This document shows positions 1,553 through 14,416 of a stretch of DNA of 46,173 nt, in pieces. Every line of letters starts with the position of its first letter. Within the stretch, counting starts at the first letter, position 1. The notes below the pieces were generated by a model. The model made no database searches. It had not been told where the DNA came from and saw nothing but the letters and a program-made list of their open reading frames with translations. The position numbers were made by a program, and so were the translations under genes. The DNA comes from a virus (taxonomy: Duplodnaviria > Heunggongvirae > Uroviricota > Caudoviricetes), in IMG/VR virus record IMGVR_UViG_2778261505_000003, positions 1 through 46,173 of that record; one strand, 5' to 3'.

Positions 1553-1753
1553 TCACGAGGACTGAAGTCTCTCGCAATTAAAATTTATCAGTTTTACTTT
1601 CTGCTCTCTGGAAACGGCTGCTTCTTTTTTACCTGAGAGCATTTTTTCGCATTCTGATTTCGTTAGTTTAGATTTTGAATATCTTGTCCAGTTAGTAGGA
1701 GTGCCACCTTCCTTTTCAATAGTGGCGGTAATTTTATACATGAACACCTCCAT
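1553..1753 (-). CDS. ydaC: Rac YdaC-like small protein; start uncertain (ORF extends to 1813)
   Basis: ORF position and sequence consistent with Rac ydaC between xis and ralR; start chosen at MEVFMY. Confidence 0.5.
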   Translation of the reverse strand: MEVFMYKITATIEKEGGTPTNWTRYSKSKLTKSECEKMLSGKKEAAVSREQKVKLINFNCERLQSS

Positions 1754-1928
1754 TATTATTTCCAGTGGTTCGTTTATTCCATCTTTCGAGTGCTTCTTTT
1801 TCACTTCCACCATAACCGGTTCGGGATTCGCATCCGTTACACTTCGCTCGGTAATATCCTGAAATGGCTTTCACCGTTACTGATGGACAACCACAAAATG
1901 GACATGGTTTAACATTGTCATATCTCAT
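1734..1928 (-). CDS. ralR: Restriction alleviation protein Lar/RalR, 64 aa from MRYDNVKPCPFCG
   Basis: Cys-rich small protein (CPFCGC...CNGC) matching recalled Lar/RalR; position upstream of recT as in Rac. Confidence 0.75.
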   Translation of the reverse strand: MRYDNVKPCPFCGCPSVTVKAISGYYRAKCNGCESRTGYGGSEKEALERWNKRTTGNNNGGVHV

Positions 1929-1984
1929 AATTTTTCTCATAAAAAATATTTCAAGTTGGCGGTGAATTACACCGCCAGACTGAA

Positions 1985-11925: not shown

Positions 11926-12594
11926 ATGACAGTTGCTGATTTCAAACGTCCTAAGTTGGAGCTCCCAAACGGGGCAAACAAACTACTATTACACTCTTGT
12001 TGTGCACCATGTTCCGGTGAAGTGATGGAGGCTCTTCAGACCTCAGGAATCGACTACACCATCTTCTTCTATAATCCGAACATTCATCCTCAGAAAGAGT
12101 ATATGATTCGTAAGAATGAGAATATTCGATTTGCTGAACAACATGGTGTACCGTTTATCGATGCTGATTACGACACTGACAACTGGTTTGAGCGAGCCAA
12201 AGGAATGGAATGGGAGCCCGAACGTGGGAGGCGTTGTACTATGTGTTTTGACATGCGTTTTGAACGGACGGCGCTGTACGCCGCTGAAAATGGTTTCAGT
12301 GTGATCAGCAGTTCACTGGGCATTTCACGCTGGAAAAATATGCAGCAGGTTAACGACAGCGGACGGCGAGCTGTCGCACATTATCCGGGCATGGTGTACT
12401 GGGATTATAACTGGCGCAAGCAGGGAGGCTCGTCCCGCATGATTGAAATCAGCAAACGCGAACAATTCTATCAGCAGGAATATTGTGGTTGCGTGTATTC
12501 ACTTCGCGATACCAATTTACACCGCAAATCCCAGGGACGCCCTCTTATCAAAATTGGTCAACTCCACTACGGTAAAGAAGAAGGGCAGGAATGA
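11926..12594 (+). CDS. queH: DUF208/QueH-like protein (putative epoxyqueuosine reductase), 222 aa
   Basis: N-terminal [11 protein letters not shown] motif and downstream Cys residues (CTMC, CGC) characteristic of the QueH family; located in the AT-rich cargo island. Confidence 0.65.
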
Positions 12595-12903
12595 TTTTTA
12601 CATTACGTCAACAGAGTGTCACAACGTTTCTATATATGGTATGCCGACCGTAATTTTCGAATCATCATGACTAATAGGCAGGTCACCTATGCCAGCAATG
12701 ACCTGCTCATCTTGAAATTAGCAGAAATCTTGTAGCTATGATGTAGCTCAAAATAGTTTTTCATTCTTTTACCTGATGTCTGTTCCTGGCTGAAAACAGA
12801 CTGTATTATTTGATTACGCACCACTGACACTTGTGTATTGAAGTAGTGAGTACAAAGCCACATATTTATCAGTGTATGTATACGTCAAAAACAGGAGATT
12901 GTT

Positions 12904-12993
12904 GTGCTGGTTCTGAAGTGTGCGTTAGCAATAGTGGCTGTGGTGGCAATTTATTGCCTTGTTGTTGTTCTTATGGAGCGACTTTCTGATTGA
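12904..12993 (+). CDS. Candidate 29-codon ORF encoding a hydrophobic single-TM peptide (type I toxin-like); unverified
   Basis: AGGAGA RBS 5 nt upstream of a GTG; translation VLVLKCALAIVAVVAIYCLVVVLMERLSD has a hydrophobic core and a charged C-terminal tail. Confidence 0.25.
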   Translation: MLVLKCALAIVAVVAIYCLVVVLMERLSD

Positions 12994-13206
12994 TTACATA
13001 CTGGCTAAAAAAAAGCGTTTGCCTGGCTTATCTTTGTCCGGCAAGGTGCGCTCATTAATCTGAAGTAAATTTATTTCTTAAGTATTCAGATTACTTCTTA
13101 TGGTCGAAGTCTCCTGGCAATGTAGAACCAAAATATTTACAAAAACGAGACCCGTCGAGGATAGCTCTGCCGGGTCTGATTGTTAAAGTATTTTTAATAT
13201 GATCAT

Positions 13207-13551
13207 CTATTTTTTGGTGCTATAGACTTTTTCGCCTGAGAAGTCTGGAGCGACCCAAAAGTTAATATTAAACTGAGCATCATCGCTTAGTTCAACACGG
13301 TGCCAGTATTGTGGTGGGCTTGTTGCAAAAGAGCCAGCATTAATAACTACTTTTATCTCTGGTTCAGTAGTATTCTCATCAGCAAAACCATAATATGTTA
13401 CAGTGCCTTCCATTACGCACAACTGCCCAAAAACACCTGCTGCTGTATTATGATGTGTTAATAACGCTGAAGGTACGTTCTCTTTTGTGAAGAACGGAGT
13501 TGAGCGTTTGATTACCCAATCTTTAGGAATTCTCTTGTGTGTCATAACCAC
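13207..13551 (-). CDS. YeaR/DUF1971-like protein (TehB N-terminal-like beta-barrel), 114 aa
   Basis: Pattern RSTPFF...YYGFADE...FNINFWVAPD resembles the recalled E. coli YeaR; AT-rich context. Family call is from memory only. Confidence 0.45.
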   Translation of the reverse strand: MVMTHKRIPKDWVIKRSTPFFTKENVPSALLTHHNTAAGVFGQLCVMEGTVTYYGFADENTTEPEIKVVINAGSFATSPPQYWHRVELSDDAQFNINFWVAPDFSGEKVYSTKK

Positions 13552-14416
13552 CTCCTATAAAACATGTATTATAAATGCACCTTTTGAGGAGTTATGTCAA
13601 GCTCTTATGAAACACATAATTGATATGTTGATTAGAGGAGAAGATAGAATAAATATGGTTGTTTTTCGTATAACTACTTGTTTTGCTTTTGGTTTATGCA
13701 TTCTGTGTGTTAGGAATAAGTTATTAAAGCTTAATCAAGAAATCTCGATGTATTCCACATAGATTACTGTTACTGAACCTTATTGTGTGCATTAGTTGTG
13801 TTCTGAAATTTCAGCTTAATTATTTATGATATATTTTTTAACGATAAATATTTTTCCAGGTAAAAGACAGTTGGGAATAAGATAAGTAATATATCATTAA
13901 TCTTGATTATTCCCAGGGTACCTTTACTGTGCATATAAATAAATCATATATGCATCAAATAATGTAAAGGCATCCTTTTAGATATGTCTTATCAAATGTT
14001 AATGACTTGAGTGGGAAACATGATTCCAGCAACTTATCATGTGGCTACTTTATAAAAATAATGCCCATATAAAACAACAAGCGAAAAGGATTACGGATAA
14101 AAAAGGAGCGAGATGTGCAAACTTGTTATTTTCCATGTTTAACCACCTTAAATAATTGATGATGACGGGATGATTGCATCTGTAATGCTTTTATTGAAAT
14201 GTTATGATAAAAAAGAACTTTTTCATAACATTAAAATGTAATTTAGCTAATCGTTTTTAATAATAAGTGTCGTATTTCTATCCTTGTACCAGCTATTTGA
14301 TATGTAGTGTTTGTTCATGCTATGTGGGGCTTTACACCATAGCCAGTTTATTTATACTTTATTCGTCAGCCTGAACAACTGGCATCTGCTGCACTGCGCC
14401 ATAGAGAGATTGAGAA

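Follow-up and report, generated by a model that had tools for sequence, protein, structure and literature searches.

Here we report that a 29-codon micro-gene in an Escherichia coli prophage is a genuine coding gene for a one-helix hydrophobic peptide. The product is probably a benign single-pass inner-membrane micro-protein that acts through helix contacts, a member of a hok-linked family restricted to Escherichia and Shigella, and not an RNA-controlled type I toxin. The stretch of DNA analysed (the window, 46,173 nucleotides) is an E. coli Rac-like lambdoid prophage with RalA sRNA, ydaU/ydaV, phage tRNAs and lambda-type tail genes. A preceding sequence-only reading had described a type I toxin-like micro-ORF at this locus; the one-helix peptide with its charged tail proved to be genuinely encoded, whereas the toxin label did not stand.

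The micro-gene and its product

The elements on which that reading was built, an AGGAGA placed 5 nt ahead of a GTG that opens a 29-codon frame, are all present at 12893-12993 (Table 1), with the TGA stop at 12991-12993 and the predicted peptide (M/V)LVLKCALAIVAVVAIYCLVVVLMERLSD. The GGAG core of the Shine-Dalgarno (SD) sequence is invariant across 20 diverse leaders. The description of the product as a hydrophobic helix with a charged tail is likewise accurate, as the peptide has a GRAVY of 2.06 and an uncharged 19-residue stretch between K5 and E25 with a mean hydropathy of 3.07. The micro-gene lies in AT-rich intergenic DNA, as had been noted, with a G+C of 0.38 in 12595-13206 against 0.50 for the whole window. 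Among ORFs of 15-60 codons that follow an SD-like motif and encode a 19-residue stretch with a mean hydropathy of at least 2.5, it stands alone in the 46-kb window, and 100 dinucleotide-preserving shuffles yielded 0 comparable ORFs. The micro-ORF is therefore more than a chance occurrence.

Features shared by all alleles of the peptide are a small-residue face, a Y-C-L motif and an L-M-[DE]-R tail. Searches of the peptide against Pfam, NCBIfam, PHROGs, PADLOC and Rfam returned nothing meaningful, the sole family-profile matches being weak ones to the ATP-synthase c-subunit (E 0.023), which are typical for any TM helix. The claim that the frame falls below the size cut-off of standard gene callers holds for RefSeq/PGAP, which omits the window allele, but not in general: several submitters have annotated copies as 'hypothetical' or 'putative membrane protein', Prokka called the copy on the Shigella virulence plasmid pINV, and in RefSeq the EHEC allele of Sakai carries the annotation ECs_5710.

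Table 1. Coordinates of the micro-gene, its flanking features in the window and the pINV copy
Feature	Position	Strand	Basis or description
QueH cargo gene, upstream	11926..12594	+	Pfam PF02677 1e-65
Weak sigma-70 promoter-like element	12838..12866	+	TTGAAG 12838-12843, 17 nt, CATATT 12861-12866
Shine-Dalgarno AGGAGA	12893..12898	+	Spacer TTGTT (5 nt) to GTG 12904
Micro-gene, GTG start, TGA stop	12904..12993	+	29 sense codons, single-pass hydrophobic peptide MLVLKCALAIVAVVAIYCLVVVLMERLSD
Remnant TTACATACTGGCT	12994..13006	+	Homologous to the stop-to-hokD-promoter -35 joiner TTTCATATTGGCG (alignments)
Second intrinsic terminator, hairpin + U8 (plus-strand A8)	13007..13051	-	Sequence, minus-strand fold
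Bidirectional terminator, A-tract/GC hairpin/T-tract	13141..13184	.	Inverted repeat I2, fold; after DUF1971 gene
DUF1971 (TehB-like) convergent gene	13207..13551	-	Pfam PF09313 2.7e-26, RefSeq annotation
pINV copy	L088 3001-3090; Shigella flexneri CP037924 complement 90908..90997		>=99% identity among ~135 pINV

Selection on the reading frame

Variation among the alleles follows the codon structure of the proposed frame. Across 17 unique alleles drawn from 84 loci, the variable sites are distributed 4/4/15 by codon position, and pN/pS is 0.21 in frame compared with ~1.0 in two control sense frames. When the plasmid and phage copies are included (29 unique alleles), the in-frame value is 0.27, the lowest of the six frames; the other five give 0.42-1.37 and contain 7-95 stops, leaving the micro-gene frame alone stop-free. 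Every independent comparison gives a significant excess of synonymous changes (Fisher p 2.5e-5 to 2.8e-4), and pN/pS is still 0.2-0.6 in diverged alleles at 57-67% nucleotide identity. Because the 84 loci had been found by a peptide pattern, we drew a second, ORF-independent sample anchored on the upstream non-coding DNA, in which the 29-codon frame was intact in 108 of 110 informative loci and cleanly deleted in the other 2, with no frameshift or nonsense mutation among the 110. The frame, the conservation of which the sequence-only reading had put forward as a check, is thus kept under purifying selection in 29/29 alleles. Since the N-terminal extensions chosen by gene callers run in different reading frames among the copies, conservation begins at the GTG. 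An antisense ORF of 61 codons annotated in phage HannyBb (L089 2908-3093) was rejected as a gene; it is interrupted by stops in other alleles, has a pN/pS of 0.62 and lacks a coding signature, so that this annotation is probably on the wrong strand.

Transcription and translation of the family

The promoter-like element upstream of the micro-gene has 8/12 consensus matches and a predicted transcription start near 12873. Its geometry (TTGAAx-17-CATATT, with the -10 ending at -37) recurs in 6/8 independent contexts with divergent spacers. The element is absent in the L213, L215 and L054 lineages; in L213, L215 and Sakai the micro-gene lies 50-115 nt behind an early gene on its own strand, again with no such element. 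A terminator scan of the window found no terminator-like site between QueH and the micro-gene, so read-through from the early operon can extend into it, and we infer that transcription proceeds from the weak promoter of the micro-gene itself and/or from such read-through. No transcription start was detected at the pINV copy in dRNA-seq of exponential-phase Shigella M90T, in which only two icsP starts lie nearby; this negative is a weak one because the copy borders a region needed for H-NS silencing of icsP.

The sequence-only reading had named Ribo-seq as a further check, and published ribosome profiling supports the translation of two homologous alleles in uninduced cultures. In E. coli O157:H7 Sakai the allele was reported as the novel translated gene XECs145 (…MSDDISLAMEGALAVIAVVGVYCLVVFLMDRLGN), predicted to be an inner-membrane protein with one TM helix (Hücker et al. 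2017, PMC5597208). Its transcriptome RPKM, translatome RPKM, RCV and coverage were 79.1, 346.1, 4.35 and 0.99 in LB at 37 °C, 121.3, 150.1, 1.14 and 0.84 in the BHI control, and 73.3, 1.1, 0.01 and 0.37 under BHI stress (PMC5597208). XECs145 is identical to ECs_5710 of prophage Sp6, with AGGAGG 5 nt before an ATG and Mok/Hok 189 nt downstream. The BL21 allele VLVLKCTLAIVAVMAIYCLVIVLMDHLSD, identical to that of phage HannyBb, belongs to cluster Escherichia_98807, with 13 retapamulin start-site reads at a fraction of 1 (PMC11188072, Table S4), 38 footprints over 90% of the ORF and a dN/dS of 0.46 as calculated by the authors (PMC11188072). These are published counts for alleles with 83% and ~74% core identity to the window allele, which RefSeq leaves unannotated, and they may include reads shared between multiple prophage copies. 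The true hokD of MG1655 also gives start-site reads, with only 6-10 footprints and a coverage of 0.35-0.58 (PMC11188072), so evidence of translation cannot by itself rule out a toxin.

Distribution and genomic context

The micro-gene is present in roughly one in three complete E. coli genomes. It stands in tandem with hokD in at least 1602 of 5426 complete genomes, where RefSeq annotates nothing in its place, and it is missing from K-12. The arrangement of the window, with DUF1971 downstream, occurs in ~350 complete E. coli genomes; the copies are 85-89% identical and all retain the GTG, SD, frame and stop, and the upstream cargo is unrelated (QueH, TPR, SIR2, MFS, IS1). Over the 611-nt stretch 12600-13210 of the window, strain AR436 is an exact match. 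The copy on ~135 Shigella/EIEC pINV plasmids is 79% identical, has an ATG start and lies ~290 nt upstream of the icsP coding start, with only a ~100-nt hok stub remaining downstream. Four isolated temperate phages also carry the gene, and the start codon is GTG in 28/29 unique alleles. Species-wide and exhaustive HMMER profile searches, together with a protein search that used a 42-aa annotated variant as query, limit the family to Escherichia, Shigella and E. albertii; among 1.84 billion proteins the profile recovered the EHEC allele (P0057 and P0058, E 5.9e-5 and 4.1e-4). In some hokD prophages nothing is left of the micro-gene, or no more than its last 25-45 nt, and such frequent truncation or deletion shows it to be dispensable. 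In E. coli ECJXMCRH7 (L007) the micro-gene is interrupted by an IS1 after codon 20, with another IS1 beyond the DUF1971 gene.

The conserved unit extends from ~-65 to ~+12 relative to the ORF, and the flanks vary on both sides. At 54 of the 84 loci, the promoter (TTGGCG-17-TAGAAT) and 5' end of a complete hokD/sok locus directly follow the micro-gene stop; the downstream hokD/sok matches the Rfam sok model at 119 bits and Pfam HOK_GEF at 3e-23. The few strongly diverged alleles again each have a Hok/Gef gene 150-250 nt downstream, and the tandem of micro-gene and hok is therefore ancestral. The hok locus is nearly identical between these prophages, in which the micro-genes share only 57-81% nucleotide identity, at a pN/pS of 0.2-0.6. 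Judged from the alignments, the DUF1971 arrangement of the window is derived, hok having been replaced and the micro-gene kept: homology to the hok-type loci ends at 13006, inside the old hok -35, and the DUF1971 gene is cargo that replaced hokD/sok in this lineage.

The terminator at 13007..13051 is part of the DUF1971 module that replaced hok. It acts on leftward transcripts, ends 14 nt short of the micro-gene stop and is placed as if shielding the micro-gene from leftward transcription. The bidirectional hairpin at 13141..13184 carries a compensatory change between alleles (GAG/CTC versus GGG/CCC) and is likely to form the 3' end of the micro-gene transcript. No promoter was found in the ~90 nt of conserved DNA between the two minus-strand terminators. 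By the same comparisons the window allele is a mosaic, its identity to L003/L005 rising from 70-72% in the leader through 80-83% over the 5' half of the ORF and 93% over the 3' half to 98-100% in DUF1971.

The slot upstream of the micro-gene (L002-L006, L030 and L216) is a hotspot for cargo with defence-like genes, including SIR2 with an adenosine deaminase and an NTP pyrophosphatase, an 865-aa AAA_13/AbiEii-like ATPase, a HigB-HTH pair, a TPR protein with an HNH endonuclease, QueH and an MFS transporter. The EHEC allele (L217 2570-2600, Sakai Sp6; L213) has a perfectly palindromic 22-nt hairpin, CGATATGGGAATTCCCATATCG, inserted between the stop and the hok promoter, which is missing from other lineages. 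Beyond the DUF1971 gene of the window, the 865 nt at 13552-14416 that lead to the DUF1367 gene have a G+C of 0.31 and no ORF of at least 100 codons, and include a ~60-nt segment unrelated to relatives that are otherwise 93-100% identical.

Search for RNA control

A type I toxin is a small hydrophobic membrane peptide (<~60 aa) with a translationally inert mRNA and an RNA antitoxin complementary to that mRNA. The 29-aa peptide matches the first part of this description; the sequence scans revealed no complementary RNA, and the mRNA has an exposed SD and, in the homologous EHEC allele, a high RCV in LB. Expression of such a toxin would also arrest growth or damage the membrane; indirectly, the cultures in which homologous alleles are translated tolerate this at native levels. 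An antisense sRNA promoter had been proposed as something to look for on the opposite strand, and consensus as well as relaxed position-aware scans of eight contexts recovered no antisense promoter or terminator that recurs in the conserved unit. Direct repeats of at least 12 nt, the mark of a divergent trans-RNA gene, are absent from the locus, the duplex energies between nearby candidate RNAs and the initiation region equal those of shuffles, and no Rfam antitoxin matches at the micro-gene. Folds of the micro-gene mRNA have z-scores of -1.5 to +1.3 against shuffles, with the SD and start codon in an open loop, and neither the weak RNAalifold consensus nor a stem between the leader and the codons shows covariation. 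The peptide has no match to Hok/Gef (PF01848) in Pfam/NCBIfam at E<=10. With neither an antisense RNA, a sequestered SD nor a family match, the label of a canonical antisense-RNA-controlled type I toxin is not supported by the sequence.

Individual candidates for RNA control were rejected one by one. The stem between the leader and codons 4-9 seen in single-sequence folds is 82.7% paired across alleles, with covariation equal to that of shuffles. A divergent promoter (-16-TATAGT) at -84, which would produce a ~110-nt upstream RNA, is absent in the window and in L030, and the pairing of this RNA with the initiation region is no better than that of shuffles. A minus-strand RNA between the terminators (13003-13140) has neither a promoter nor pairing.

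Proposed role and alternative explanations

The family has a fixed place among the early-right genes of lambdoid prophages and shares its strand with the replication and Q genes; ancestrally it stands immediately upstream of the hokD/sok promoter, and in the window lineage hok has given way to DUF1971. The peptide would insert as one helix, with K5 probably cytoplasmic and the acidic tail outside, and at native levels would act benignly via helix-helix contacts, either with itself or with a membrane partner, in which its conserved features (small-residue face, Y-C-L, L-M-[DE]-R tail) may take part. This topology may not be general, because the N-terminus of the EHEC allele is acidic. The micro-protein has the attributes of a small inner-membrane protein, namely a length below 50 aa, one predicted TM helix, translation of homologues and purifying selection, and by homology and by its slot upstream of hok the window micro-gene belongs to the XECs145/Escherichia_98807 family.

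An alternative is that the micro-gene is an adjunct of hok/sok, its peptide modulating the membrane-located Hok, or its transcription or translation tuning the hok promoter. The tandem is retained in all alleles, the most diverged included, the micro-gene stop falls a few nt before the hok -35, and the loci that have lost the gene keep its last 25-45 nt before hok, as expected if this segment doubles as DNA upstream of the promoter. We nevertheless consider this role unlikely, since the gene is intact in the hok-less window lineage and beside the stub on pINV, many hokD loci, K-12 among them, lack it entirely, the near identity of hok across prophages with diverging micro-genes speaks against co-evolution, and the purifying selection acts on the peptide, beyond the mere act of translation. 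A version in which the peptide is a partner of Hok, which it would modulate, buffer or potentiate, or a gate on the hok promoter, is distinctly improbable; if true, it would explain the retention of the tandem through allelic divergence and mean that a classic type I system under RNA control has a further layer made of peptide. It is also quite unlikely that the peptide is a canonical type I toxin, a membrane-depolarising peptide silenced by an unrecognised antisense or trans small RNA. Its size, hydrophobic helix and charged tail suit the class, as do the near-universal GTG start, the location next to hok/sok in a part of the prophage with many toxin-antitoxin loci, the frequent loss (by IS1 insertion in one case), the start-site reads that a true hokD shares, and a lineage restriction like that of Ldr, Ibs and ZorO, which are themselves lineage-restricted. 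Against this, the window and pINV copies keep the gene despite the loss of all flanks, and the conserved unit that survives lacks a recurrent antisense promoter or terminator, a pairing RNA or a direct repeat; the exposed SD, the structures devoid of covariation, the lack of a toxin family or Rfam antitoxin match and the efficient translation of the homologous EHEC allele in healthy exponential cultures, unlike that of an antisense-silenced toxin, point the same way.

The micro-gene might instead encode an early-operon peptide for host takeover or lysis timing, harmful but needing no antitoxin because it would be made mainly after prophage induction, through read-through from pR. Its constant placement on the early-right strand, the copies close behind an early gene in L213, L215 and Sakai and the terminator-free stretch from QueH to the ORF in the window fit this proposal; transcription and good translation in uninduced cultures, retention on pINV outside any phage and conservation of the promoter-like element in most lineages do not, and we regard it as very unlikely. 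That the frame is open by chance, or that the DNA is conserved for a non-coding reason (for example, as hok upstream promoter DNA) and the peptide has no function, is scarcely credible. The frame is short, has no known domain and partly overlaps hok upstream DNA, but the codon-position pattern, the frame-specific pN/pS, the absence of stops in this frame alone, the outcome of the shuffles and the Ribo-seq signal all contradict such an origin. The benign inner-membrane micro-protein thus remains our preferred explanation.

Relation to known small proteins

XECs145/ECs_5710 and Escherichia_98807 are homologous alleles of the micro-gene in an identical slot upstream of hok. Both have been listed as translated small ORFs, the latter in the 'Entero67K' micro-protein set (PMC11188072), with records confined to supplementary tables and with no function, name or discussion; the sources link them neither to each other nor to hok or the pINV copy. 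A full-text literature search for the peptide strings gave matches in supplements only. Two supplementary catalogues and one annotation (ECs_5710) already record the family, which is uncharacterised, and its internal relationships, hok linkage and pINV copy are not described in the sources searched. Our analysis joins three scattered records into one family, namely XECs145/ECs_5710, the Ribo-RET cluster of BL21 and an ORF that lies 200-290 bp ahead of the icsP start site, and fixes its ancestral position beside hok/sok. In the case of the window allele, standard RefSeq annotation passes over a gene that about one third of the complete E. coli genomes and the Shigella virulence plasmid carry. 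The family offers a concrete small-protein target for membrane biology, for the function of prophage accessory genes and for hok regulation.

AcrZ, MgtS, CydX, KdpF and YohP are non-toxic small inner-membrane proteins of E. coli. The micro-protein resembles them in its size, single TM helix, strong SD of its own, detectable translation in normal growth and purifying selection, but shows no homology to them and is borne on prophages and plasmids, from which it is often lost, rather than on the core genome. With Hok/Gef, Ldr, Ibs, ShoB, TisB, DinQ and ZorO it shares a length of under 50 residues, one hydrophobic helix, an occurrence in few taxa and residence in mobile DNA, in its case beside a true hok/sok locus. 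In contrast to these toxins, to which no sequence relationship was found, it has no antitoxin RNA that we could find, no sequestered SD and no long structured leader, and its homologue is translated in growing cells. Hok/Gef proteins in particular have ~50 aa with a Cys-containing periplasmic domain and are accompanied by mok/sok/fbi elements, whereas the micro-gene peptide matches no family. The case also cautions against calling every hydrophobic micro-ORF a type I toxin.

A genuine type I pair is encoded elsewhere in the window, where the RalA sRNA (1557-1735, plus strand; Rfam 220 bits) overlaps the 3' end of RalR (1734-1940, minus strand; MRKIMRYDNVKPCPFCGC...).
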